Below the pieces are notes generated by a model. That model ran no database searches, was not told the DNA's origin, and was given only the letters and a program-made list of their open reading frames with translations. DNA of 64,000 bases from a virus. Position numbers and translations under genes: made by a program. Each line of letters begins with the position of its first letter. Positions within the stretch are counted from its first letter, which is position 1. The stretch lies in the UHGV virus genome UHGV-0125682; one strand, written 5' to 3'. Below are positions 14,493-55,657 of this stretch, one piece after another.

Positions 14493-14510
14493 AAGTTAAA
14501 TTTCTAACAT
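14493..14510 (-). promoter_or_regulatory. Operator-like motif (AAGTTAAATTTCTAACAT)
   Basis: Instance of recurring 18-bp motif AAATTAGTTTTCTAACAT. Confidence 0.4.
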
Positions 14511-15698: not shown

Positions 15699-15716
15699 GT
15701 GTTAGAAAATTAATTT
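15699..15716 (+). promoter_or_regulatory. Operator-like motif (GTGTTAGAAAATTAATTT)
   Basis: Recurring motif; upstream of icd/ant module. Confidence 0.45.
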
Positions 15717-25562: not shown

Positions 25563-26057
25563 TTGTTGTTATTATTTCGCATATTTACTATCAATGGGTG
25601 TGTTAGAAAAATAGCGCGAAAGAGAAGGCGTCGCAGTGAATATTCTGAAACATCCCCACATGCCGCAGCTCTTAGAGAACTGGAGAAAAACCCAGATCTA
25701 ATCAAAAGGAACCATGAGCATTACGAGCAGGTTCGCGTCCTGGACTGGATGTATCGCAATATGCGTTATGTGTATGAGCATACTCACGCCACTCCAAACG
25801 GTGGCCTGCGAGGCATAAGGACGGCAATAAAAATGGTGGCAGAGGGCCAAAAGAAGGGATATCCCGATCTTTCTATAGACCTTGCTTGTGGGGGATACCA
25901 CGGAATGCGCATTGAGATGAAACATGGGAGAAATCGCCTGACTCCCGAACAACTCGTCTGGATGACTCGCCTCACAGAAGCCGGTTACTACTGCTTTGAG
26001 GCGCGCAGTGCCGCTGAAGCCATAAAAGCTATCACGGAGTATGTTTGTCTTGATTAA
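25563..26057 (+). CDS. VRR-NUC domain nuclease-like protein (start uncertain)
   Basis: ...PNGGLRGIRTAIKMVAEGQKKGYPDLSIDL...IEMKHGRNRLTPEQ...; no in-frame ATG before the domain, TTG at 25563. Confidence 0.5.
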   Translation: MLLLFRIFTINGCVRKIARKRRRRSEYSETSPHAAALRELEKNPDLIKRNHEHYEQVRVLDWMYRNMRYVYEHTHATPNGGLRGIRTAIKMVAEGQKKGYPDLSIDLACGGYHGMRIEMKHGRNRLTPEQLVWMTRLTEAGYYCFEARSAAEAIKAITEYVCLD

Positions 26058-26643: not shown

Positions 26644-26660
26644 TGTTAGAAAACTAATTT
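26644..26660 (+). promoter_or_regulatory. Operator-like motif (TGTTAGAAAACTAATTT)
   Basis: Recurring motif upstream of 26682 gene. Confidence 0.45.
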
Positions 26661-27892: not shown

Positions 27893-27909
27893 TGTTAGAA
27901 ATCTAAAAT
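27893..27909 (+). promoter_or_regulatory. Operator-like motif (TGTTAGAAATCTAAAAT)
   Basis: Recurring motif at start of ORF-poor island. Confidence 0.4.
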
Positions 27910-28048: not shown

Positions 28049-28065
28049 TGTTAGAAAAGTATAGT
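28049..28065 (+). promoter_or_regulatory. Operator-like motif (TGTTAGAAAAGTATAGT)
   Basis: Recurring motif. Confidence 0.35.
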
Positions 28066-33114: not shown

Positions 33115-34475
33115 GTCTGGTTAATTGGGAGGAGCACCGCGCCCGCTTTATAGCGTTGCGTGAAGAAAAAGGGATCACTGTAAAGGAATACTGTGAGGAG
33201 CATGGCCTTAGCTTCAATACAGCCAGAAAGCATCTCAATATGAAAAAAAATGAGGTGCGGTCGCAGGTAAAGACAACAAAAAAAAGCACCAAATCACCTG
33301 AAAAAAAACGGGCGGGAAGAGCAACAAAAAAGCTGGAAGAGGGTGCAGAAAAAACAAAATTTACAGAAATTGACAATTCGCAGGGCGCAGGTTCTTTCCG
33401 AAGTATGCCGAGAAAGAAAACTTCGGATCATGAAAATAATGCAAATAATAACAATGAGATAAAAGAATCTGTCAGGAGATCATTGCGCGAAAAAATGGCG
33501 AAAATGATCCCCGAAGAAGATAAAAGCGCCCCAAAAATTGAGGGATCTTCAGCAATGATCCCTGGCGGTGCTGTGCAGCGTGCCACATTGCCCACTACGA
33601 ATGTGGCTCGCGATATGATGAAGAACGGCGCAGAAGAACACCTGCGGTTAGCAATTCAAATGGCGCAAGAGCGCGCACTTCAGTATCAAAGCATTGTTGA
33701 TCAGGAGGCCGAACGTCTACAGGCGGAAATAGACGCCTTGGGCGATAAAGAGCCAGAAGGAATGCACCCTGGGCAGCGCCTTCTCGGTCTAATCAGTGAC
33801 GCTGCCTACTACATGAATGATTTTATCAGTAGGTTGGCAGCTATATATCAGTCCGAACAAAAGCTGCGACAGGGGGATGAAAAGCTTCGTCAGAGCGCTC
33901 GCCAGCAAGCATTCAAAGAGGCTGAGGCCAGAGAAAAACTCGAATTAGCACGCCTACAGGCCGAACAGCGTGGCAAAGAGATTGAATATCGCATTGGCGC
34001 TGACGCACGCGCAGCCAGAGTTATCGCCGCCGCTATACGTATGCGTGAGCGCGAGGAACTGGATGATATCAGTGTTGCTGAATACATCGAGCGCCAGGGG
34101 GTCAGCGTCCCGGCTATCCTCGCGGCGCGCGCGGCGAAAGCTATCACTCTTCTCGAACCACCTGTTTCTGACGTCAATGATGTTGATGATGAACAGCTGG
34201 ACAAAGAGGCAAGGGAGTTTGCAACGCTTCAGGCTAACCATCCGCAATGGCTGGCAGAGCGCCGGGCGGATGTGGCAACCATTGTTGAAGAATTGGGGTG
34301 CGGAGATTACGACCGCAATGGCGAGCGTAAAGCTGGAGAATTCGAGGCCAACGACGAAGAGCTGGATATTGACCCTTCGGCAACGGCTGAAATTTACGGT
34401 GATTATGATGCATCTGATGCAGGGTATGACGCCGGAGATGATGATATCGCGATAGAACCGCCGGAGGATGATTAA
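33111..34475 (+). CDS. pacA: Terminase small subunit (PacA-like)
   Basis: 454 aa; N-terminal HTH ITVKEYCEEHGLSFNTARKHL; K-rich linker; acidic C-terminus; GATC-hexamer cluster inside; directly precedes large terminase. Confidence 0.7.
   Translation: MSLVNWEEHRARFIALREEKGITVKEYCEEHGLSFNTARKHLNMKKNEVRSQVKTTKKSTKSPEKKRAGRATKKLEEGAEKTKFTEIDNSQGAGSFRSMPRKKTSDHENNANNNNEIKESVRRSLREKMAKMIPEEDKSAPKIEGSSAMIPGGAVQRATLPTTNVARDMMKNGAEEHLRLAIQMAQERALQYQSIVDQEAERLQAEIDALGDKEPEGMHPGQRLLGLISDAAYYMNDFISRLAAIYQSEQKLRQGDEKLRQSARQQAFKEAEAREKLELARLQAEQRGKEIEYRIGADARAARVIAAAIRMREREELDDISVAEYIERQGVSVPAILAARAAKAITLLEPPVSDVNDVDDEQLDKEAREFATLQANHPQWLAERRADVATIVEELGCGDYDRNGERKAGEFEANDEELDIDPSATAEIYGDYDASDAGYDAGDDDIAIEPPEDD
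33420..33565. other. Candidate pac site (clustered TGATCC/GGATCA Dam hexamers)
   Basis: GATC at 33426, 33506, 33545 and 33557 within ~140 bp of pacA. Confidence 0.35.
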
Positions 34476-35983
34476 TGGCTGGCGGGCGCAAGATTAAATG
34501 CGTCACCAGCGATCCACGCTGGCGCGATATGGTAATCAAATACCGCTACAACTTTACCCAAGCTGTTGTCGATATTTTTGGGATGTTCCCCTCCCACCAG
34601 CAGCAGCAGATCATTCAGTCAGTGCAGGAAACGGGGAGTAGGACTACCGTCACGTCCGGACACGGAACGGGGAAGTCGTCCCTTACCGCGATGTTGCTGT
34701 TGATTTTTATGATCCTGTTCCCCGATGCCCGTGTCATCATTGTTGCTAACAAGATAGGCCAGGTAAAAACAGGCGTATTCAAATACGTTAAACAGTATTG
34801 GGCGAATGCAGTTAAGCGTCATGGGTGGTTGCAGACCTATTTTGTCCTCTCTGACACCATGTTTTATGAGCGCTCCCGTAAGGGGATTTGGGAAGTTCTC
34901 TGCAAAGGTTATCGACTCGGCAACGAAGAAGCGCTGGCGGGGGAACATGCGGCACATTTGCTTCTAATTCTGGATGAAGCATCTGGTATATCTGATAAGG
35001 CGATCGGCGTAATGACCGGTGCTCTTACTGAAGAAGATAACCGGATGTTGATGCTATCCCAGCCAACAAGGCCAAGTGGTTATTTCTACGATTCGCACCA
35101 TTCTCAAGCAAAAACCCCAGACAACCCGAAAGGGATCTGGACAGCAATTGTTCTTAACTCGGAAGAATCACCGTTCGTCACACCACAATTCATCAAGCAG
35201 AAGCTTCTGGAATATGGCGGGCGCGATTCTATTGAGTACATGGTCAAGGTGCTTGGTCAGTTCCCACGAGAAATTAACGGCTATTTGCTTGGTCGTGATG
35301 AATGCGATCGCGCAGCTCGCCGCAAGGTGTTGTTGGAGAAAAACTGGGGATGGGTGGCAACGGCTGACGTTGGTAATGGGCGAGATAAGTCGGTCCTCAA
35401 CATCTGCAAGGTATCTGGTCACAGGGATAAGCGGCGCGTTGTTAACTTTAAGGTAATGGAGATGCCTGGCACTATGGACCCATTGGCCTTTGCTGACTTC
35501 ATATATAACGAATGTACGCCGGAAAAATACCCGAATATAACAATCGCGGTTGATGCCGATGGTTTTGGTTCTGATACGTGTGCGCAGTTGGTGCGTCGTG
35601 GTGCGAACCCGGTACGTATTCGGTGGGGAAAACCCATGTTTGCAAACAAAGACAGGGAGCGATTTGTTAATCAGCGTGCCTACGCAAATATTATCGCGCG
35701 AGATGCCATAAAGTCAGGGCGTATGCGGATAGACAGTGACCCTAAAACGGCAGAGCAAGCGTCAAAAATCCCCTTTTTACTGAATGAAGAAGGGAAAATG
35801 GCGATGATGCGCAAAGAGCACATGCGGCAAAAGCTAAACATCAAATCGCCTGACCGATGGGATACCTACTGCTTCACTATGCTGGTGGACTATGTGCCTG
35901 CTAATGAAGATATTGGTGCCGAAATGGCAACTTTTCGGGATCAGGTTCTGGCGGATATCGAAATGCCGGATCTGGATATATAA
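34475..35983 (+). CDS. pacB: Terminase large subunit (PacB-like)
   Basis: 502 aa; Walker A TSGHGTGKSS; Walker B LLLILDEASG; ATG overlaps pacA stop. Confidence 0.85.
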   Translation: MAGGRKIKCVTSDPRWRDMVIKYRYNFTQAVVDIFGMFPSHQQQQIIQSVQETGSRTTVTSGHGTGKSSLTAMLLLIFMILFPDARVIIVANKIGQVKTGVFKYVKQYWANAVKRHGWLQTYFVLSDTMFYERSRKGIWEVLCKGYRLGNEEALAGEHAAHLLLILDEASGISDKAIGVMTGALTEEDNRMLMLSQPTRPSGYFYDSHHSQAKTPDNPKGIWTAIVLNSEESPFVTPQFIKQKLLEYGGRDSIEYMVKVLGQFPREINGYLLGRDECDRAARRKVLLEKNWGWVATADVGNGRDKSVLNICKVSGHRDKRRVVNFKVMEMPGTMDPLAFADFIYNECTPEKYPNITIAVDADGFGSDTCAQLVRRGANPVRIRWGKPMFANKDRERFVNQRAYANIIARDAIKSGRMRIDSDPKTAEQASKIPFLLNEEGKMAMMRKEHMRQKLNIKSPDRWDTYCFTMLVDYVPANEDIGAEMATFRDQVLADIEMPDLDI

Positions 35984-36011: not shown

Positions 36012-37049
36012 TTACCAGAGCTTCGCGGCGTACTGCGTTTGGGGGAATGTGTATCCGTAACGTTCTTCGATTGCTTTGCCGTATTTTTTACGAGCTTCAT
36101 TCAGTTTAATGCCGGTCAGGTCGTCTCCAGAGGCCATCATTACGTCTAACAATTCCAGATCCATTTTATCCAACCTTGCCATTGCTTCACGTGATGTACG
36201 TATCTTACGCTCAATGATATGGCGAATAGCCGGATCGGCATCCTCCAGCATCTTAGCGGATTTCTGCTTAAGGCTTTCATTGCGAATATCGATGTTCCTT
36301 AAGATGTACGACTTCGCAACGTAGCTTGGCTGGTGTTTTTCCAGGTCACGAACACGATATAAGTTAAAATCGCCGAGAAGGCTGCATGGTACCGATTCGA
36401 CGCCAGAATAAATTGTAATGCTCCGGCGTTCACCAACATTATTGACAACGGGGATCGTTGTCTTCGGTAGTCTTGCGAAAACCAATGCGCCATGTGCGCC
36501 AACTCTAAAGCGAGAAAGGGCATTGCTGCCTTCGATGTTTGTTGTCAGCACAACATCTGTATATGCCTCTTTACGCGCCCGGTAGATCTCGCCTTCAGGC
36601 TCAGCTTCAAAGAAGCGCTGTTCTTCTTCAAGAGCACCTACGATTTGAGAAAAAACCCTATTTTTCAGGCTTTTCTTTATGATTTTGTCGTATTTTTTTA
36701 GCAATTGTTCACGTGTAAATGTACGTGTTGTTGTAGCGCTTTGCACAACGACATGCGTGCTTTGATTGGTGTCCTCAATGATGAATGGGATCGGAGAATA
36801 TACAGACTCAACAATGTTCGACGCTTTGCCGTCGGCATCGCGGCACATGTCAACGAAGGCTTTCCATTCAGCAAGACATTTTTCAGCTTCTTCTAATATG
36901 TTTTGGTCATGCGTTAATGCAACATGGCGGAATTCCTCGCCAGCATAACTGGTATCATGGAAAACAGAGTTTGCGACCACCAGCTCTTTCCACCGTTCAG
37001 CGGTTTGCAGGAACCGTTTGTACTCTTTCTCGATCGACTTCTTACTCAT
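36012..37049 (-). CDS. Putative C1-type immunity repressor (by position between pacB and rox)
   Basis: 345 aa; divergent from dre; operator-like motif 12 bp upstream of its start. Confidence 0.4.
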   Translation of the reverse strand: MSKKSIEKEYKRFLQTAERWKELVVANSVFHDTSYAGEEFRHVALTHDQNILEEAEKCLAEWKAFVDMCRDADGKASNIVESVYSPIPFIIEDTNQSTHVVVQSATTTRTFTREQLLKKYDKIIKKSLKNRVFSQIVGALEEEQRFFEAEPEGEIYRARKEAYTDVVLTTNIEGSNALSRFRVGAHGALVFARLPKTTIPVVNNVGERRSITIYSGVESVPCSLLGDFNLYRVRDLEKHQPSYVAKSYILRNIDIRNESLKQKSAKMLEDADPAIRHIIERKIRTSREAMARLDKMDLELLDVMMASGDDLTGIKLNEARKKYGKAIEERYGYTFPQTQYAAKLW

Positions 37050-37060
37050 TATTCCTACTC

Positions 37061-37078
37061 GATTTAGTTTTCTAACAT
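37061..37078 (-). promoter_or_regulatory. Operator-like motif (GATTTAGTTTTCTAACAT)
   Basis: Recurring motif immediately upstream of putative repressor gene. Confidence 0.45.
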
Positions 37079-37259
37079 AAAATTACTATGACAAATTTAT
37101 GTCGAATAACAGGGTGAGTAAAGGATCGAACTGTGATTTTTTGTCATCAATTTTAGAAAACCAACCGTAGAAACCACACTTCGCAAATTAAAGACCATGA
37201 AGGCAACGTGTTACTGGTCATCATCAATCTATGATGGATTAAAAAAAATCGGCATTTTA

Positions 37260-37291
37260 TAACTTTAAATAATTGGCATTATTTAAAGTTA
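37260..37291. other. rox: rox-type recombination site (14-bp inverted arms, 4-bp spacer)
   Basis: TAACTTTAAATAAT-TGGC-ATTATTTAAAGTTA; matches rox as recalled; 150 bp upstream of Cre-like gene. Confidence 0.8.
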
Positions 37292-37443
37292 GGCTATAAT
37301 CATGTGTAGATGAACAGTGTTGACATCACTGAAAATACGTGCCTCGAATCAAAGGCTTGTATTTTGAAAATTAACTTATAGCTACCCTGTCATTTTTATA
37401 TTTTTCGCGTAGCGTCATCTGTATATAGAGGTCAAATAGTTTC

Positions 37444-38472
37444 ATGGGCGAATTAATTATCTCTGGCAGTTCCGGTGGTTTTCTGCGCAACATTGGCAAA
37501 GAGTACCAGGAAGCCGCAGAAAACTTTATGCGGTTCATGAATGACCAGGGAGCTTATGCGCCGAATACTCTGCGCGACCTCCGTTTGGTGTTTCATTCCT
37601 GGGCGCGCTGGTGTCACGCTCGCCAGCTTGCCTGGTTTCCGATCTCACCAGAAATGGCCCGCGAGTATTTTCTTCAGCTGCATGATGCCGATCTGGCTTC
37701 GACCACCATTGATAAGCACTACGCCATGCTGAACATGCTGCTTTCGCATTGTGGCCTTCCACCACTTTCGGATGATAAAAGTGTTTCTCTGGCTATGCGG
37801 CGCATCCGGCGCGAAGCGGCAACTGAAAAAGGCGAACGAACAGGCCAGGCTATACCGCTGCGGTGGGACGATCTGAAACTGCTCGACGTCCTGTTGTCCA
37901 GGTCTGAACGGCTGGTGGCCCTGCGCAACCGGGCTTTTCTCTTTGTTGCATACAATACGCTGATGCGTATGTCGGAAATCTCGCGTATTCGTGTAGGAGA
38001 TCTGGACCAAACAGGTGACACTGTCACGCTACATATTTCACACACGAAGACAATAACGACCGCCGCCGGGCTTGATAAGGTGCTTTCCCGTCGCACTACC
38101 GCTGTGCTGAATGACTGGCTGGATGTTTCCGGGCTTCGCGAACATCCTGACGCAGTGCTGTTCCCGCCGATACACCGTAGCAATAAGGCCAGGATCACGA
38201 TAACGCCCCTTACTGCACCTGCAATGGAGAAAATATTCAGCGACGCCTGGGTGTTGCTGAATAAAGGAGATGCTACGCCAAACAAAGGAAGATACCGGAC
38301 GTGGACCGGGCATAGTGCACGCGTCGGGGCCGCTATCGATATGGCTGAAAAGCAGGTCTCTATGGTGGAGATTATGCAGGAAGGAACCTGGAAGAAACCG
38401 GAAACACTTATGCGGTATCTGCGCCGTGGCGGCGTGTCTGTGGGGGCTAATAGCCGCCTGATGGATTTATAA
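37444..38472 (+). CDS. dre: Tyrosine site-specific recombinase, Cre family (Dre-like)
   Basis: 342 aa; Cre-like ...WTGHSARVGAAIDMAEKQVSMVEIMQEGTWK...; 34 bp cognate inverted-repeat site upstream. Confidence 0.9.
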   Translation: MGELIISGSSGGFLRNIGKEYQEAAENFMRFMNDQGAYAPNTLRDLRLVFHSWARWCHARQLAWFPISPEMAREYFLQLHDADLASTTIDKHYAMLNMLLSHCGLPPLSDDKSVSLAMRRIRREAATEKGERTGQAIPLRWDDLKLLDVLLSRSERLVALRNRAFLFVAYNTLMRMSEISRIRVGDLDQTGDTVTLHISHTKTITTAAGLDKVLSRRTTAVLNDWLDVSGLREHPDAVLFPPIHRSNKARITITPLTAPAMEKIFSDAWVLLNKGDATPNKGRYRTWTGHSARVGAAIDMAEKQVSMVEIMQEGTWKKPETLMRYLRRGGVSVGANSRLMDL

Positions 38473-38488
38473 ATTAAATTTCTAACAC
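38471..38488 (-). promoter_or_regulatory. Operator-like motif (AAATTAAATTTCTAACAC)
   Basis: Recurring motif just after dre stop. Confidence 0.4.
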
Positions 38489-38545
38489 ATCTTTTTAGAT
38501 TAACATCTTTGCTGTAAAGTACCCTCGCCTATTTAGGAGGGTGCT

Positions 38546-38890
38546 TTGCAGAGTCAAATCACGGAATCAAGACGCTTCAAGGTGGATGGTTACACCGTAA
38601 CCTTCGCCGCTGGTGTTAAGAACAGTCATGCTGTCGTTGTGTTCGGCATCATGACCGGGCTTGAGGCCGTCCCTGTGTTTACCCTCGAAAAAAACTGGCG
38701 AAATCTGGAGGAAGCAGAAAGCTACGTCCGGAAAGTAACCATCATTGCCGCCGAAAAACTCCTGGCCCACTATCAGGAAAATTATCGCACTATGGTCGAG
38801 AAGATTAATCTCGCTTTCACTCGCCCCACTACCGGCTTTATTGCACCGGATACTAATGCAGGTCGATATCCTGCAAGGGGGCGTCGGTGA
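38546..38890 (+). CDS. Hypothetical protein
   Basis: 114 aa; TTG start with RBS TAGGAGGG. Confidence 0.45.
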   Translation: MQSQITESRRFKVDGYTVTFAAGVKNSHAVVVFGIMTGLEAVPVFTLEKNWRNLEEAESYVRKVTIIAAEKLLAHYQENYRTMVEKINLAFTRPTTGFIAPDTNAGRYPARGRR

Positions 38891-39363
38891 AAACTTATTA
38901 CCCATCTCTGAATTGTTACCCGTCTTCCTATCCAGAATTATCCGGGAAGCTGTTAGCTCTATTAGCTAAAGCACCTACGGAATGGTTTAAGCCAGTCGTT
39001 ATCAATCCACACTTCCTGGATTACGGATCTGTTCGCACTCGTAACGAACTCAAAAACCTACTGGCGCATGGATTCATTCGACACCGTGCCGGGAAAGGCT
39101 ATCAGTTAGCGATTGCGCCAGAAGAGGCCGTGCGGCTATTCGCATATCGTGACAGCCAGACAAAAGCTCGGGTAATAGCTCAAATACTTCTTAACGGCAG
39201 CACCTATGCCCGCCAGTTTGGCGGCGACACGTCGCAGTTCTTGCGGGCGGTGCGATCGCTGGAGGAGCAAGGGGTTATTGAAAGTTCCTGTCTTCCTGTT
39301 CCTACCGTTCCACATATCAAACGTCGGGTTTACACCTTCACGCAGAGAGCTAAAAAACAATGA
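38887..39363 (+). CDS. Hypothetical protein
   Basis: 158 aa; GTG start overlapping upstream stop. Confidence 0.45.
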   Translation: MKTYYPSLNCYPSSYPELSGKLLALLAKAPTEWFKPVVINPHFLDYGSVRTRNELKNLLAHGFIRHRAGKGYQLAIAPEEAVRLFAYRDSQTKARVIAQILLNGSTYARQFGGDTSQFLRAVRSLEEQGVIESSCLPVPTVPHIKRRVYTFTQRAKKQ

Positions 39364-39854
39364 TTTACGTAAAAGTGAAACGCCTACATCCGGCAGCAAA
39401 ACTTCCAGCTTATGCCACCTCCGGATCGGCGGCGATGGATTTTGAGGCTGTTGAAATAAAACCATGCGTCGATAGCAATGGTGCAATTTCCTCAAGCTGG
39501 TGGGTGTACACCGGACTGGCTATGGAGATCCCGCCCGGCTGGTGTCTGAAACTCTATCCGCGCTCCGGATTGGGCTGCAAAAAACATACTCGCTTGGCTA
39601 ACTGCGTAGGAATTATCGACTCCGATTATCGCGGTGAAATCATGGCAAAACTGATTACTGATCCAGGCGGGGAAGTCGTTCGTCTCAAGCCTGGAATGGC
39701 TGTCATGCAAGGCATTTTTGAGCGTGTTGAACAAGTCTCACTAGTCGAGGTTGAGGAACTCAACGAAACGGAGCGTGGTGCTGGTGGCTTTGGTAGCACA
39801 TCGGAAGGCCACTTTGAAATAAAGCGTTCACCGCTTCAGTACGAAAAGTTATAA
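39360..39854 (+). CDS. dut: dUTP diphosphatase
   Basis: 164 aa; motifs AYATSGSAAMD, RSGLG.K, GIIDSDYRGE, GGFGSTS. Confidence 0.9.
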   Translation: MIYVKVKRLHPAAKLPAYATSGSAAMDFEAVEIKPCVDSNGAISSSWWVYTGLAMEIPPGWCLKLYPRSGLGCKKHTRLANCVGIIDSDYRGEIMAKLITDPGGEVVRLKPGMAVMQGIFERVEQVSLVEVEELNETERGAGGFGSTSEGHFEIKRSPLQYEKL

Positions 39855-39868
39855 GCAGAGAAAAGACC

Positions 39869-40636
39869 ATGAATAACATGAAAACAATTCAATACCGCTT
39901 GCGTAATGGCCTGCTGGTGGCTGTTAACGCCGACATGTCACTGCCGTTTGACACGATTGAACGCACTATCATGACGTATCTCGGCTTTAATGAAGAGCTG
40001 AATGAAGAGCATGGCGTAGCTATATGGAGTGATGCAGAAAGCGGCGTTCATCGTTACATCACCGCCAGGGGCAAAGACTACTCTCTTGAAGAACTGTTTA
40101 CCCTTGCACAGTCTTTCGAATGTGTAGCATTAGACCTGTTTAATGATCCTGCTATAGCGCAACGACTTATACGCGAGTTTGGGCTATCCGTTACACCAAT
40201 TATCTTTAAAAATGGCAGCCTGACTGGCACATGGCGCGTAGAACGCATCTCAAACTACCTTCCATATAACCGACAGTTAAATGGAGTAATCTCCGGCGTT
40301 AATCAGCCCGTAGCGTGTGAAAATGTAAACCTGGTTGTCGCTGTTTTGGCAACCGCATGTCGTGTTATCGGTTTGGCTAAACAGGCATTTATTCATTTCC
40401 CAAATGGTGCAGAAGGTAGCGCAGAGATTATCGCGTGTGATTTCGAATTTACCTGGATGCTACGCGAATATCTGGACCAAACAGTATTCCGTGCCGAAGA
40501 ACTGGATATGTATATCACGTCAACGATTCCAGACGATGTGCGAGCTGAAGCAATCGCTACAGCCAGGGCGAAATGCCGTGCGGCGATTGCAGAACAGGCC
40601 AAAGAAGAAGTTAAGGAAGTGGCAGATGGCGACTAA
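39869..40636 (+). CDS. Hypothetical protein (upstream partner of PacB paralogue)
   Basis: 255 aa; stop overlaps next ATG by 11 nt. Confidence 0.5.
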   Translation: MNNMKTIQYRLRNGLLVAVNADMSLPFDTIERTIMTYLGFNEELNEEHGVAIWSDAESGVHRYITARGKDYSLEELFTLAQSFECVALDLFNDPAIAQRLIREFGLSVTPIIFKNGSLTGTWRVERISNYLPYNRQLNGVISGVNQPVACENVNLVVAVLATACRVIGLAKQAFIHFPNGAEGSAEIIACDFEFTWMLREYLDQTVFRAEELDMYITSTIPDDVRAEAIATARAKCRAAIAEQAKEEVKEVADGD

Positions 40637-41720
40637 GAGCAATATTTATAAAGATCCGCGCTGGCTGTCGCTGGTGGAGAAATATAAAGACAATTGGGTA
40701 CTGGCAGCAAAAGAATTGTTTGATATTGATTTAAGCCACCAGCAACAACAAATTGTTGAAGCTATACAGCCCAATAATGCAAAAGCTACTGTCACCACTC
40801 CGTATGGGATCGGACGACCGCAAGTGCTTGCTGTTATTAGTACCCTTTATACGATTATGTATCCTGATTCCCGGACAGTAATTGTTTATCCAAAATCAAA
40901 TGTTTGCAAAAGAGGAATTGTTGCATATGTGTGGCAATGTTGGGAGGCATTGCTGAAAAAACAACCTTTTATCATTGAGTATTTTAAGGTCGGTGATAGC
41001 GGTCTGATGTTCAATGAATTTTGGGGAATGTGCTTTTGTAACTACCGCCTTAACTATGAAGATAGCATTGCAGGTCACTACGCCGACCATCTTTTATTCA
41101 TTATTGTGGATTCCGCACATATCAGCGATCGGGCATACAGCATTGTGTGGGCAAGCATGACTAGTGGTGATTCACGCATATTGCTCACTTCAATTCCGTC
41201 ACCAGAGGAAATAGGCTTTTTTTATGATTCACATCATGGACGTGCTTTAGCTGAAGATAATCCGAGTGGTGTATATAAAGCCATTAAGCTGAGTGCGGAG
41301 GATTCACCATTTATTACCCAAGAATATCTTGATCATTTTGCCGAAAGGTATGGCGGGCGAAATAGTGATGACTATCGTCGTATGATTCTTGGTGAGTTCC
41401 CTGGTATTAGGGAGGCTGTTCTTGAATCAGATATGCCGAAGACAATGCGCTTTTCGATGCCTGATGGTAGTGAATGGACAATGCCATTACGAGTGATAGC
41501 CCGGCATCATGCGCAGCACCACGCCAAAAAACATGGCGTCACAACATTAGAATGGTTGAAATCGCACACTATTCCACTCTTCACTGCAGATCACAATGCT
41601 ATCGTTGAGTGGGCAAAAACAATTCCGTGGGAGCATGTCGCTGAATATGCTCACATGCTAAAACCGCCGAAAGACAGGCACGAAATTAGCTGGCTGACAG
41701 CCGAAAAAATCATTGAATGA
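40626..41720 (+). CDS. PacB-paralogous terminase-ATPase-like protein with degenerate Walker motifs
   Basis: ~364 aa from ATG 40626; aligns with PacB N-terminal ~270 aa (DPRW, HQQQQI, FYDSHH conserved); Walker A is TTPYGIGRPQ (no GKS/T), Walker B is LLFIIVDSAH (DE to DS); no PacB-like C-terminal nuclease region. Confidence 0.7.
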   Translation: MATKSNIYKDPRWLSLVEKYKDNWVLAAKELFDIDLSHQQQQIVEAIQPNNAKATVTTPYGIGRPQVLAVISTLYTIMYPDSRTVIVYPKSNVCKRGIVAYVWQCWEALLKKQPFIIEYFKVGDSGLMFNEFWGMCFCNYRLNYEDSIAGHYADHLLFIIVDSAHISDRAYSIVWASMTSGDSRILLTSIPSPEEIGFFYDSHHGRALAEDNPSGVYKAIKLSAEDSPFITQEYLDHFAERYGGRNSDDYRRMILGEFPGIREAVLESDMPKTMRFSMPDGSEWTMPLRVIARHHAQHHAKKHGVTTLEWLKSHTIPLFTADHNAIVEWAKTIPWEHVAEYAHMLKPPKDRHEISWLTAEKIIE

Positions 41721-44222: not shown

Positions 44223-45711
44223 GGTCCGCCTCATGCTTTTCAGCCACCAGCGGCAATAAAGCCCTGGCCATCTTATGAACCAATAGTGCATCAATAATGC
44301 CAAGCGTATGCCCCGGCTTAATGTTTAATGCCGCCTCAAGGTGACACCTTTCCAGGCCACTTTTCTCGGCTTGTTTATGATGATCTGGTGTAATAACGTC
44401 GCCCAAAACACGGCTAATTCTTTCTCGTAATTGCTGGGTGCCAGCACACTTGATCGCTGTATCGTGGAGACGGTTAACCAGTTCGCGATAAACATGCGGC
44501 TTAATTCGGATACGTTCACCGGTGACGCCCTTTCCTGGTGCTGGCACCGAACTATCCGGAATATCCGGATAGTTGCCTGCCAGTCTACGCAAAACGGCCT
44601 TAACAGCCTCAATACGGTCATCATCGCAATTTTCCAGCGTATCTATGCGATCGAGCATGATGATGGCGTTATCAATATCAGGATTGCCGGTCCACTCATT
44701 ACCGCGATTGGATTCGGCAGCCTGGTTGCCGCGTACTGGTTGATTATCGGCTTTACCCAGTCTGTCGTTGCTGCATGAATGCCCTTCCAGCAAGGCCAAT
44801 GCTTGTCGCATGAAATACGCAATATGTTTGCCGTGGTAATCGTCTTCATCGATGTGAAAAGCGATACTGCGGATGTATTCAATTGCGTTTTCAATGGCCT
44901 CCGGCGTTATCGGCGCTGACATATTTTGATTTTGGAGTGCCAAGACGCGACTGGCATCCTCAACGTTCTTCACTGCATCTGCGCAGTAGTTATAGCGATT
45001 GCATTCCACTAACTTCTGCTTGAGATTTTCAATTGCTTGCGCGACATCAGCCTGTATTTCCGGAACTGGCGGAACGGCTGTCTGCTGCTCTCGAACGTCA
45101 TTAGTCGCTATCGGTTCTGCTGCCAGCTGACTGGCATATTTGTTAATGGTAACGATAAGCTCTTGCTCGGCCTCATCCAGACAATCACCGATACCTCGCC
45201 TGTCACCGTCAAAATCATCGAAATCGGCACGAATCTTGGCAACCTTCTGGATTGCGGACAACACCTCACTAGGAATTACCGGATAGTTGGTTGACGTTTC
45301 CGCGATTTCCCGAAAATTATTGGTTGACGAATTCTTGTTTTCCCGAAAGTTTCCGGACTGAAGCATGGCTTCGCGGCAATCGTTCCAGCCTGTAGCGTAT
45401 GCAGCCGCTTTGCTGCTGCCTTCAACTGGCGCATCCTGCCAATACATTTCTTCCGGCACTACCTGCACCTGAGGGGTGGCGTAGAGTGGAATTCCTCCCC
45501 CTCCACCAGAAAATTCATTGCGAGCGTTATACTCACGACCATCTGCGTCATCACGCATCCACGCCACCGGTTCTGCTTCCAGCGATGCCAGCGCGATACG
45601 AAACACATTGGCAAGCAGGCTGTCTGAAGATTGGTTATCGTGCGCCGGGTCGCTCAGGAAGCCTGTGATGAATGATTTAATCTCCGCACGTTCTTTGGTA
45701 ATAGTGGTCAT
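44206..45711 (-). CDS. Hypothetical protein; C-terminal module shared with 54184-54798
   Basis: 501 aa; Gly5 run; C-terminal ...KPHVYRELVNRLHD...GTQQLRERI... Confidence 0.55.
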   Translation of the reverse strand: MTTITKERAEIKSFITGFLSDPAHDNQSSDSLLANVFRIALASLEAEPVAWMRDDADGREYNARNEFSGGGGGIPLYATPQVQVVPEEMYWQDAPVEGSSKAAAYATGWNDCREAMLQSGNFRENKNSSTNNFREIAETSTNYPVIPSEVLSAIQKVAKIRADFDDFDGDRRGIGDCLDEAEQELIVTINKYASQLAAEPIATNDVREQQTAVPPVPEIQADVAQAIENLKQKLVECNRYNYCADAVKNVEDASRVLALQNQNMSAPITPEAIENAIEYIRSIAFHIDEDDYHGKHIAYFMRQALALLEGHSCSNDRLGKADNQPVRGNQAAESNRGNEWTGNPDIDNAIIMLDRIDTLENCDDDRIEAVKAVLRRLAGNYPDIPDSSVPAPGKGVTGERIRIKPHVYRELVNRLHDTAIKCAGTQQLRERISRVLGDVITPDHHKQAEKSGLERCHLEAALNIKPGHTLGIIDALLVHKMARALLPLVAEKHEADHANES

Positions 45712-45721
45712 GTGTTACTCC

Positions 45722-45985
45722 TTAACCCGCAGTGCTTTCAACTGATGAGGGGAACAAAATCTTTTCATCAAACCCTGCATTCATATCATGAACAGCAACA
45801 CACCAATCCATCGACGAACGATTATCAAGAGCCTCCATGATTTCATCCATGCGGCGCAGGTCATACAGGTAAATGCTTTTATCGCCAATGGTGTAAAAGC
45901 CAATTTTTTTCGGTGATGGACAGCGATCAAGAACGTCCTGTAATTCGTTCAACCATGCCCGTTCTTTTTTTGTTAAAGTTGCCAT
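45722..45985 (-). CDS. Hypothetical protein
   Basis: 87 aa from MATLTKKERAWL...; RBS AAGGAGA. Confidence 0.5.
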   Translation of the reverse strand: MATLTKKERAWLNELQDVLDRCPSPKKIGFYTIGDKSIYLYDLRRMDEIMEALDNRSSMDWCVAVHDMNAGFDEKILFPSSVESTAG

Positions 45986-45986
45986 A

Positions 45987-46175
45987 TCACTCTCCTTTAG
46001 TGCGCAAATGGTTTTTCCAGCGGTTTTGCGCCGCGCTGGGCTTTTTGCAAAAACCACAATCCATCATCCCGTAATATTTCATCAACCCCATCCGTCGGTT
46101 GCTGAGTCTCACCCACTGCCAGACGCCAGGAGCGTTTCTACGAACTAACAGAATCTTTGCTTTACGGTTTTTCAT
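45987..46175 (-). CDS. Hypothetical small basic protein
   Basis: 62 aa ORF. Confidence 0.3.
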   Translation of the reverse strand: MKNRKAKILLVRRNAPGVWQWVRLSNRRMGLMKYYGMMDCGFCKKPSAAQNRWKNHLRTKGE

Positions 46176-46347
46176 CGCTTTGCTCTCCTGCGTCTCTTTG
46201 CTGCTCGTCGTGCCGCTGCAATACCGGTATGGCGGCGCTTTGGTGCCGGGATGATGTTGTCAGCCATCAGGACATACGGCTTTGCAATTAGCGCAGAAGC
46301 CCAAAAACGAGTCGGGTACGGTAACAAGCCGATACATGCCACACGCA

Positions 46348-47109
46348 TTACTCACCTCCTTTGATGCGAATGCCTGCAGCGCGGATTGCAGCGATGACTT
46401 CAGAAACTTTGTATGCCATTACCGTTTGGTAATCATCGTGAAAATCTGTTCGATGAAGCATGCTGCTACGTTCCGGGAGCGATATTTCCCGAGCATCCAG
46501 TTCCTTAACGCGTTCCTCCAGTTCGTAGACCCTGCATTGTTCTCTATCATCAATCAGATATAACCCAAGACATTCGCTTTCTACCCAACCGCCAAAATCA
46601 TGATCGTAACGCTCACATGAAAACTCACCGTCACCGTCCTTTGTTGGAATGGTGTAACTATCTAATGGGCCACCATATGTCGGCACATTTCCCAATGTTG
46701 GATGCTCAATCCACATGAAAAATGCACGTCCGGTTATTGGGCAAATATCTGGCCGCCATTGGTTACGAACAGCCTTGGTTTCGGATAATTCTTCAGCGTG
46801 TTGTTTTACTTCCTCAAGCTCAACTCTCAGCTTCCCTACCGTTAGCGCAATATCCTCGTTCTCCTGATCGCGGCGTTTTATGTATTGCTGGTTTCTTTCC
46901 CGTTCATCCAGAAGCGCCAAGACGGTAGCCGGATTGGCTGCGGCGATGAATTCAGCATCACGAGATTCGTTTTCACTGAACACCATAGCTATTTGCTCAT
47001 GGTTTATGCCGTCAGTGGAGTAAATCTCATCGTCGAATTCAACAGCCCACTTACCTTTCGTAGCCTTCTCTGCCGCCTCACGCAGTGCCTGATAGTCAAT
47101 CTTGCTCAC
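46348..47109 (-). CDS. Hypothetical protein (MSKIDYQALREAAE... N-terminal family, Ea22-like)
   Basis: 253 aa; N-terminus shared with 47847-48032. Confidence 0.55.
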   Translation of the reverse strand: MSKIDYQALREAAEKATKGKWAVEFDDEIYSTDGINHEQIAMVFSENESRDAEFIAAANPATVLALLDERERNQQYIKRRDQENEDIALTVGKLRVELEEVKQHAEELSETKAVRNQWRPDICPITGRAFFMWIEHPTLGNVPTYGGPLDSYTIPTKDGDGEFSCERYDHDFGGWVESECLGLYLIDDREQCRVYELEERVKELDAREISLPERSSMLHRTDFHDDYQTVMAYKVSEVIAAIRAAGIRIKGGE

Positions 47110-47410
47110 TGGCAGCCTCCTTTGCCGGGATTTCTAACTTTTGAGTGGTTGTATCAAATTCAAACAACTTAACCACGTCATCAAACAGGACATAATCACC
47201 ATCAGGATCTTCAGTCATATCTGCGCCACAATCCTGACCGCACGAGTCGCAACCATCCATATCAAGCTCGTATCGCTTCAGGTTTGCGATATTTGATAAA
47301 TTCAGCGCCAGTACAGCCAGGTCATAAACCTCTTCGGCAGTGACATCGCTGTTCAGTCCCATTTCATGGCGATATATGATTTTTTCTACCCGTTGTTTTG
47401 TGATTGTCAT
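47096..47410 (-). CDS. Hypothetical acidic protein
   Basis: 104 aa; overlaps neighbours by a few nt. Confidence 0.45.
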   Translation of the reverse strand: MTITKQRVEKIIYRHEMGLNSDVTAEEVYDLAVLALNLSNIANLKRYELDMDGCDSCGQDCGADMTEDPDGDYVLFDDVVKLFEFDTTTQKLEIPAKEAASEQD

Positions 47411-47850
47411 TTTTGCTCACCTCCCTGTTCTTCCAGAAAAATACGCATAGCCTCAAGCATCTCTTCGGTGTCATACGGTGACAACTTGTCACGCAGGATG
47501 TGTTCAATGCTGTTAATGAACTTGCGGATTGCTTTGCGTTCAATTTCAGCCAGGAAAGCGTCGGTGGCTGACATATTTCCTGTTGCCTTCATGGCCTTCA
47601 AAATAACCAGAACGCCATCTCGCCCAACCACCTCAGCGATAACCTCAGTGTTGTCGCCAACAACATCGCAGAATGCCTGAACTGCCTTACGAGCCAGCTC
47701 ATTCTCCACTGCCAGCGCCGCGCACTTGGCCTCAAGAGCGGCAACCACTTCCTGATGGTCTTTGTACTTAACGTATGAGCCGGAGATGTCATCACCTTCG
47801 GTGTTTAGCCATGCGTCATTGCAATTCACTGCGTAGGTTCTGATGCTCAT
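47407..47850 (-). CDS. Hypothetical protein, ATDAFLAEI...EQ(L/I)RKGG paralogue family
   Basis: ~147 aa from MSIRTYAV...; motif shared with 51553, 52191, 53392 genes. Confidence 0.5.
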   Translation of the reverse strand: MSIRTYAVNCNDAWLNTEGDDISGSYVKYKDHQEVVAALEAKCAALAVENELARKAVQAFCDVVGDNTEVIAEVVGRDGVLVILKAMKATGNMSATDAFLAEIERKAIRKFINSIEHILRDKLSPYDTEEMLEAMRIFLEEQGGEQK

Positions 47851-48032
47851 GTTGATGCTCTCCCGCCCCTGACAGACGCCAGGCCAGTCAATAAAGTATC
47901 CGCACAATGCCTACCCTCAGACGTGCGCGCAGGATAAATGCCGTTATGACCCGGCAAAATATATGCTACCCATTCATCTTGCGTTGCCTGTTCCGCCGCC
48001 TCGCGCAGTTCTTGATAGTTAATTTTGCTCAC
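47847..48032 (-). CDS. Short ORF with Ea22-like leader fused to unrelated sequence (possible remnant)
   Basis: GTG start; first 22 aa match N-terminus of 46348-47109, then divergent. Confidence 0.3.
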   Translation of the reverse strand: MSKINYQELREAAEQATQDEWVAYILPGHNGIYPARTSEGRHCADTLLTGLASVRGGRAST

Positions 48033-48720
48033 TGGTTGCCCCCTGAATACGCTTAAACTCGATTACCCACACCCAAGGATTAGCGTTCCAACTATCTTCG
48101 CCATAAATTGATTTCCATAGGCTACGGAAACATGGGTAATGCTTATCGCCAATGAGGGTCGATTCTGTTGGTGCGCCCTCAGCCCTTGCATCGCATTCGC
48201 TGATATCGTTCAACCGCTCAACGCGCACGTTGGTAATTTCCAGAAGAATGCGCGATGCCCAGCGCGGCATGTGAATTGATGGACACCACCCGCCATCAAA
48301 TTTTTCATTCACAGTGTGAGGTTTCCAGTCGGCATCATCGGGTATCGACCACAAGCCGTAATCACCCGGCTTTTGCTCACAACTGGCCCGATAAATCCTT
48401 GCTGCGTTCTTCTCATCGCCACGACAAAGGTTGTCGTTCCAGTCCACACTGCAACCATCCTCATTGCCTAATATCGCCCACGCCTCACGGACCCATATGC
48501 GATCACCAACGTTACCGAACGGGCATAAACCATGTTCAGGTGCATCCATAACGTGGGTATAGACACCATTGCGTTTCTTTGTCGGTTTACGGATAACCAG
48601 GCAGTTATCGGCCCTGACATTTTTTACAGGTCGGCGAGTCTGCGTCTTCCTTCCTTCGAGGATGGCCCTGACCATCTCATCGTTAAAAATCATCCCGCGT
48701 TCTTTCATTTTTTGATCCAC
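48019..48720 (-). CDS. Conserved phage protein (MIFNDEMVRAILEGRKTQTRR N-terminus)
   Basis: 233 aa. Confidence 0.55.
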   Translation of the reverse strand: MDQKMKERGMIFNDEMVRAILEGRKTQTRRPVKNVRADNCLVIRKPTKKRNGVYTHVMDAPEHGLCPFGNVGDRIWVREAWAILGNEDGCSVDWNDNLCRGDEKNAARIYRASCEQKPGDYGLWSIPDDADWKPHTVNEKFDGGWCPSIHMPRWASRILLEITNVRVERLNDISECDARAEGAPTESTLIGDKHYPCFRSLWKSIYGEDSWNANPWVWVIEFKRIQGATSEQN

Positions 48721-48724
48721 CTCA

Positions 48725-49762: not shown

Positions 49763-49793
49763 TGTTAGAAAACTAAAATCAATGTTCTAACAC
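49763..49793. promoter_or_regulatory. Operator-like motifs (TGTTAGAAAACTAAAAT plus TGTTCTAACAC)
   Basis: Recurring motif between two genes of the leftward operon. Confidence 0.45.
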
Positions 49794-54989: not shown

Positions 54990-55006
54990 TGTTAGAAAAT
55001 CAATTT
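54990..55006 (+). promoter_or_regulatory. Operator-like motif (TGTTAGAAAATCAATTT)
   Basis: Between the leftward operon and ref-like gene. Confidence 0.45.
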
Positions 55007-55067: not shown

Positions 55068-55646
55068 ATGCAGAAACAGAGCTATTGGGAGAAACAGAGA
55101 CAAAAAGCCATGCAAAAATTGGCTGACCCAGCCTGGCGAGAGGAACAAAGGGCAAAGCGCCTTCAACAAGCTCAACGCCAGCAGCAGCGAGCGAGAGAAA
55201 AAGCCGCATCGCCTGAATATCGGCAAAAGAAAATTGAAAAAGCAAAGCAATATGAACAGCGGAGAAAAGATAAAGCTGTATCCGCTCCGTCCAAAAAAAC
55301 ACGCACGTCACGCGGCCTGAAAGGCAGATCACTCACAGCCGATGAACGCCGGATACAGACCGCTATCGGTGCTCTCCCCTGCATTGCCTGCCATATTCAC
55401 GGGCAACATAGCCCAGTGGTATCCCTGCACCATATCTTCGGGAGAACGGCAGAGAACGCGCATAAATATGTCCTCCCTTTGTGTAAATGGCACCACCAGT
55501 ACGCAGCGCCAGCCGAGGTCAGAGAACAATATCCCTGGCTGGTCCCTGTTCATGCTGACGGAAAAATAGGCGGAAAAGCAGATTTCATGCGGCACAATGC
55601 CGATGAAATGACGTTGTATCAGATGGCGATTGAGTTGATAAATTAG
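55068..55646 (+). CDS. ref: HNH-type nuclease, P1 Ref-like
   Basis: 192 aa; K/R/Q-rich N-terminal ~95 aa then ...CIACHIHGQH...HHIFG...PLCKWHHQ. Confidence 0.5.
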   Translation: MQKQSYWEKQRQKAMQKLADPAWREEQRAKRLQQAQRQQQRAREKAASPEYRQKKIEKAKQYEQRRKDKAVSAPSKKTRTSRGLKGRSLTADERRIQTAIGALPCIACHIHGQHSPVVSLHHIFGRTAENAHKYVLPLCKWHHQYAAPAEVREQYPWLVPVHADGKIGGKADFMRHNADEMTLYQMAIELIN

Positions 55647-55657
55647 TTTTCTAACAT
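55640..55657 (-). promoter_or_regulatory. Operator-like motif (AAATTAGTTTTCTAACAT)
   Basis: Exact consensus instance just after ref stop. Confidence 0.45.

Follow-up and report, generated by a model that had tools for sequence, protein, structure and literature searches.

A naturally occurring Dre allele next to rox in a D6-like phage-plasmid

The virus genome UHGV-0125682 carries a gene for a Cre-like tyrosine recombinase preceded by an inverted repeat, an arrangement that raises the questions of which recombination system it represents, what that system does for the element that carries it, and how much it adds to what is already known. The DNA analysed here, referred to as the window, is a continuous stretch of 64,000 nucleotides. 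Comparison with published sequences makes it very probable that the module is the Dre/rox site-specific recombination system of a D6-like phage-plasmid. Its two components are the following.

37444 to 38472, plus strand: dre, Cre-type tyrosine recombinase of 342 aa, 337/342 residues identical to D6 Dre
37260 to 37291, minus strand (the usual written orientation): rox, 32-bp recombination site, exact match to the published rox, composed of a left arm (37260 to 37273), a spacer (37274 to 37277) and a right arm (37278 to 37291)

On alignment, the open reading frame at 37444–38472 encodes a natural allele of the known Dre. Its product matches both Dre records (AAV84949.1 and ASR76376.1) without gaps at 98.5% identity, and what an initial annotation of this DNA had called a Dre-like recombinase is Dre itself. 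A further 23 codons differ from D6 dre by synonymous changes only, and dN/dS (Nei-Gojobori) amounts to 0.06 against D6, with values of 0.045 and 0.054 for two relatives at a greater distance, which shows that the gene is under purifying selection. When positions 37000–38700 are compared with phage records by megablast, D6 is the sole phage returned; AY753669 covers 100% of this interval at 97.5% identity, with c1, the rox site, dre and orf2 annotated under the match.

Both the domain content and the active site of the protein are those of the Cre-like subfamily. The catalytic domain PF00589 is recognized above the cut-off (E 3.6e-16) and the N-terminal SAM-like DNA-binding domain PF02899 just under it (E 2.6e-4); the best PDB matches are Cre chains, aligned over the full length (E about 1e-67), the PDB copy searched containing no Dre structure. 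All six catalytic residues (R175, K202, H290, R293, W316, and Y325, the R-K-H-R-W-Y set) are present, correspond to R173, K201, H289, R292, W315, and Y324 of Cre, do not vary across 78 aligned relatives and agree with the catalytic positions listed for Dre (PMC4777119). Identity to P1 Cre is limited to 131 of 321 aligned residues (41%), in keeping with the earlier description of the protein as Cre-like but clearly divergent from Cre. Membership of the Dre/rox system follows from a protein that is essentially Dre and from a cognate 32-bp rox beside its gene.

This site consists of two 14-nt arms, 100% complementary and separated by 4 nt, the plus strand at 37260–37291 reading TAACTTTAAATAAT-TGGC-ATTATTTAAAGTTA. 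The spacer is asymmetric (TGGC on the plus strand, GCCA on the minus strand in the usual orientation). Wild-type rox has been published as 5'-TAACTTTAAATAATGCCAATTATTTAAAGTTA-3' (PMC4777119), and the minus strand at these positions shows 0 mismatches to it; none of 100 shuffles used as a chance control gave a match. In AY753669 these 32 bp carry the label 'region of crossover (rox) site for Dre recombinase'. The window copy aligns identically, so that the 32-bp sequence identified as rox in the initial annotation agrees with both the published site and the annotated one. The inverted repeat had been given as 34 bp long, starting at 37259; the repeat exists, but its true length is 32 bp because the two flanking bases, quoted as (A)...(G) for native rox (PMC3082901), are not complementary and do not pair in the window. 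Between the end of rox and the dre ATG lie 152 bp, matching the earlier figure of 150 bp. The 64 kb contain no second copy of rox at up to 3 mismatches, no stray half-sites at up to 2 mismatches and no loxP. Alignment to the published pair thus gives agreement at all 32 bp of the site and at all but five residues of the protein.

The identity of the element can be read from the genes around the module.

34475 to 35983: pacB
36012 to 37049, minus strand: c1, D6-type repressor gene (345 aa), matching c1 of AY753669 as well as D6_1 of MF356679 in location and length (phrog_1678, E 2.8e-170)
38546 to 39854, plus strand: orf2 (38546 to 38890), orf3 (38887 to 39363) and dut (39360 to 39854) downstream of dre, in the D6 order, equivalent to orf2/orf3/dut of AY753669 and D6_117/116/115
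40626 to 41720, plus strand: additional PacB paralogue of 364 aa (phrog_5902, function unknown), absent from D6 at this place

The c1 gene is placed divergently, upstream of rox, and the D6 immC region shows the same gene order as the window: pacB, c1, rox, dre, orf2, orf3, dut. D6 itself (dre of AY753669, AAV84949.1; D6_118 of MF356679) has the same rox (32/32), the same 152 bp gap and a Dre of the same 342 aa. Alignment of the whole window to the complete D6 genome (MF356679) by blastn yields 12 collinear blocks that add up to ~47.5 kb of the 64 kb (74%) at 87–98% identity, leaving roughly 26% without a D6 counterpart. The DNA of the dre locus is ~97.5% identical to that of D6 (~2.5% divergence), and the alignment is continuous over 37276–39880 at 97.7%, its junction at 37275/37276 being the point, inside rox, at which the D6 record was linearised. 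Positions 45074–48722 have no counterpart in D6 and mostly match P1-group phages such as RCS47; of 24 kb compared with P1, P7, and RCS47, only ~6.5 kb gives matches. D6 is listed among unclassified Caudoviricetes, not in Punavirus, and within the P1 group of phage-plasmids its relatives are assigned to subgroup P1-g2 (PMC7969092), where the window is placed by its genome-wide collinearity with D6 rather than with P1. Because of this placement, the earlier designation as a D6-type P1-family phage-plasmid is a fair description. Judged by these alignments the window is a mosaic relative of D6, not D6 itself, and differs from it in the five residues of Dre, in the lack of orf114 and in the additional PacB-like gene.

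The absence of orf114, which in D6 sits between dut and an isaA-like gene, corresponds to a 447-bp indel at 39880/39881 relative to D6 and several relatives. The PacB paralogue is 37% identical to the terminase large subunit PacB over its N-terminal 258 aa, shows degenerate Walker A (GHGTGKS to PYGIGRP) and Walker B (LLILDEAS to LFIIVDSA) motifs and has no nuclease domain. Clusters of the P1-type pac hexamer TGATCA/G were sought around pacA/pacB, where two isolated hexamers only were found; with the P1-type cluster absent there, the attempt to place rox inside the terminal redundancy by means of a pac signal was given up, and such a signal lends no support to a cyclisation role.

Established knowledge of Cre-type recombinases together with published work on Dre (PMC4777119, PMC4957104, PMC3082901) provides a mechanism for the module. 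A pair of Dre monomers occupies the 14-bp arms of a rox site, two such sites synapse as a tetramer, and Y325 cleaves and exchanges strands sequentially around the 4-bp spacer, the asymmetry of which gives the site its direction; accessory proteins are not required. The reference Dre is reported to recombine two identical rox sites and not to cross-react with Cre/loxP (PMC4777119, PMC4957104, PMC3082901). The allele described here would likewise be expected to recombine rox and not loxP, its substitutions avoiding the catalytic positions and the known specificity positions.

By analogy with Cre/lox of P1, the natural role of the module is likely the resolution of plasmid dimers and the cyclisation of infecting DNA. 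P1 Cre/lox resolves plasmid dimers, and P1 cre is annotated as 'cyclization recombinase'. With one rox per plasmid monomer, dimers would be converted to monomers and the low-copy prophage would segregate faithfully, and terminally redundant phage DNA would be circularised by Dre/rox after infection. The two systems have much in common, including the fold family and catalytic residues of the recombinase, a site located just upstream of the gene, in the immC region beside c1 and the pac genes, and, presumably, both functions; they differ in that Cre is only 41% identical and loxP has a 13-8-13 structure as opposed to the 14-4-14 of rox. In the D6-like plasmid pYU39_89, multimer resolution has been attributed to this module (PMC6799933).

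The distribution of the locus bears on this role and on whether the recombinase might instead be an integrase by which the element enters the chromosome at an attachment site, the inverted repeat being the attP core. The locus occurs in 144 PLSDB plasmids, mostly from E. coli, Salmonella, and Shigella and ~90 kb in size, and in 124 of 5,426 complete E. coli genomes, where the gene is annotated only as 'tyrosine-type recombinase/integrase'. The D6-like relatives are plasmids of ~90 kb in 126 of the 129 places at which the locus is found in these genomes; the remaining three are chromosomal. These three places and the assignment of the protein to the 'phage integrase' family PF00589 are what an integrase would lead one to expect, but the predominance of plasmids, the simple symmetric lox-type site devoid of arm-type repeats, the Cre-like two-domain layout lacking an arm-binding domain and the near identity to a protein reported to recombine two identical rox sites make chromosomal integration a most improbable function. 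A different alternative is that the five amino acid changes (S2G, D159A, T253I, R275G, and S342L) have inactivated Dre or shifted its specificity, the module being in decay or altered. D159A is private to the window, as it is absent from 33 close relatives, among which T253I and R275G are minority alleles; against this stand a full-length frame with intact catalytic residues, an unaltered cognate rox and codon changes relative to D6 that are synonymous in 23 cases and non-synonymous in five (dN/dS 0.06, as above). All five positions are variable and none is catalytic in the 78-relative alignment, where many residues are tolerated (Q/E/H/D/A at 159) and Ala159 and Gly275 both occur in other members of the family; Cre has Asp opposite 159 and Gly opposite 275, and one relative, L079, shares four of the five changes. 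The specificity residues named for Cre, K43, R259, and G263 (PMC4957104), align with R44, P259, and K263 of Dre, none of which is altered. A drifted or inactive Dre is thus very improbable, and the activity of this particular allele in the Dre/rox system is inferred from its sequence with mild caution, only because D159A is private among the 33 close relatives.

Relatives of the locus extend from near identity to distant homologues, and the sites that accompany their genes support the view that rox and dre work as a pair. The closest sequences are the IMG/VR locus L079 (99.3%) and plasmids (98.8%), no identical record being present among the sequences compared. Dre identity to the window among 33 IMG/VR relatives ranges from 99.7% (341/342) down to 69%, and all 33 carry rox or a near-rox sequence 151–153 bp upstream of the ATG; rox stays at 32/32 even in loci whose flanks are merely 81–83% identical. 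Natural variants of the site also occur. An A-to-G change at position 9, in the gene-distal arm, is found in ten loci (L085, L089, L091, L094, L097, L098, L100, L106, L107, and L108; about 2817–2848 in the full-length loci), in some of which Dre shows 100% identity to the D6 protein, and the spacer reads GGGG in L095, TGGAG in L108, and TAGC in L111. Two viral contigs, L113 and L114, encode a recombinase 55–56% identical to Dre with a rox-like site at 2818–2849, TAACTTTATATAAT-GTCA-GTTATATAAAGTTA, 151 bp upstream of the gene; judging from these sequences, recombinase and site could be another pair in the Dre/Panto group.

Homologues with 40–47% identity are encoded at 74 genome loci of Pantoea, Rahnella, Mixta, Erwinia, and related genera. 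They belong to the same subfamily as Panto/pox of Pantoea sp. aB and related chromosomal or plasmid-borne recombinases of Erwiniaceae and Yersiniaceae, outside D6-like phage-plasmids. As in the 55% homologues, the gene is preceded by a 14-4-14 site whose arms read TAACTT(T/C)ATATAAT, usually at a distance of 150–370 bp in the Pantoea/Rahnella type. These proteins are far more divergent than the window Dre from that of D6, the arms of their sites differ at 1–3 positions and the spacers differ as well. Recombination of rox by Panto and of pox by Dre has been reported (PMC4957104), a cross-reactivity with which the rox-like sites of the distant homologues are in agreement.

The value of the locus has to be seen against this background. 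The initial annotation had presented it as a ready-made heterospecific tool pair; the pair is indeed Dre/rox, but it is no discovery, because the system was published in 2004 and has been in routine use since (PMC4777119, PMC4957104, PMC3082901). Nor is a new tool gained, since Dre/rox is already established as orthogonal to Cre/loxP. The phage-plasmid family is common and has been described before, the recombination system is thoroughly known, and the locus represents one more natural allele of it, with nothing new in Dre/rox itself. Its interest lies mainly in annotation, as it ties the window to the D6-like (P1-g2) phage-plasmids and gives a name to a gene that public records label in general terms only. 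The relatives provide natural Dre alleles and rox variants (the A9G arm and the GGGG, TAGC, and TGGAG spacers) that indicate which positions of the site tolerate change in nature, which is of minor practical value.

A further feature of the site concerns the expression of dre.

37273 to 37300, plus strand (toward dre): putative promoter, TTGGCA-16 nt-TATAAT, 11/12 matches to the sigma-70 consensus

The −35 hexamer comprises the rox spacer and one base from each arm (the last of the left arm, the first of the right), and the −10 hexamer begins 4 nt past the end of rox (3 nt between). This promoter-like signal suggests that Dre may regulate its own synthesis. Under such a second function, rox would be the operator of the dre promoter, and bound Dre would cover the −35 element and repress dre, much as resolvases autoregulate at res sites. 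No other sequence on the two strands of the 64 kb reaches 11/12 against the sigma-70 consensus, and the signal has its −35 element within the spacer and adjacent arm bases of rox; TATAAT is invariant in 33/33 relatives, the neighbouring bases of which vary; and L111, at 69% amino acid identity, retains TTAGCA-16-TATAAT. Several points weigh on the other side. The putative promoter is recognized by consensus match only, and the conservation of its −35 element is inseparable from selection on rox itself. A check of the Pantoea/Rahnella homologues showed that the arrangement is not kept there, and in P1 the three annotated cre promoters, like cra, are located downstream of lox and not within it. 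An operator function of rox in the window is therefore a possibility that falls short of an even chance, and the general proposition that D6-type elements also use rox as operator for dre, Dre occupancy shutting off dre transcription, is best regarded as rather doubtful. We know of no description of such a built-in autoregulatory loop for Cre-type recombinases. If it is real, rox sites in constructs would bring with them half of an outward-reading bacterial promoter, and the promoter-like signal could matter to users who place rox in bacterial constructs.

Many Pantoea-type homologues show another arrangement, in which the rox-like site is followed (30 nt) by paired GGATCC/GATCC (Dam-site) motifs together with a −10 element resembling GGTATGAT (L019, L030, L041, L042, L044, L056, L058, L063, and L077), which recalls the Dam-regulated cre promoter annotated in P1.

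The interval between rox and dre contains two more conserved stretches. At 37347–37359 on the plus strand, AATCAAAGGCTTG fits the IHF core consensus WATCAANNNNTTR perfectly and is conserved in most close relatives; matches to this consensus number 9 in the window against 3.65 expected, and the evidence for IHF binding is thus weak. Directly in front of the dre start codon, a block of ~75 nt (37370–37443, plus strand) is conserved even in relatives whose protein identity is as low as 69%. A structured RNA in this leader was considered and rejected, since a search gave no Rfam match at E values up to 1, the predicted fold is no better than that of shuffled sequences (z −0.11) and covariation is weak.

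Finally, both sides of the rox-dre segment are marked by copies of a 17-nt motif.

37061 to 37077, plus strand: 17-nt motif copy, putative D6-type C1 operator, just upstream of c1 and conserved in relatives
38471 to 38487, plus strand: 17-nt motif copy, overlapping the dre stop codon and preceding orf2

The motif (approximately AAATTAGTTTTCTAACA) has 11 copies in the window, its core TTTCTAACA being observed 11 times against 0.5 expected. It differs from the P1 C1 operator, and the D6-type C1 repressor probably uses it as its operator. Besides the two copies listed, it is found at 14493–14509, 15700–15716, 25601–25617, 26644–26660, 27893–27909, 28049–28065, 49763–49779, 54990–55006, and 55640–55656, and the copies share a 5' extension beyond the core.
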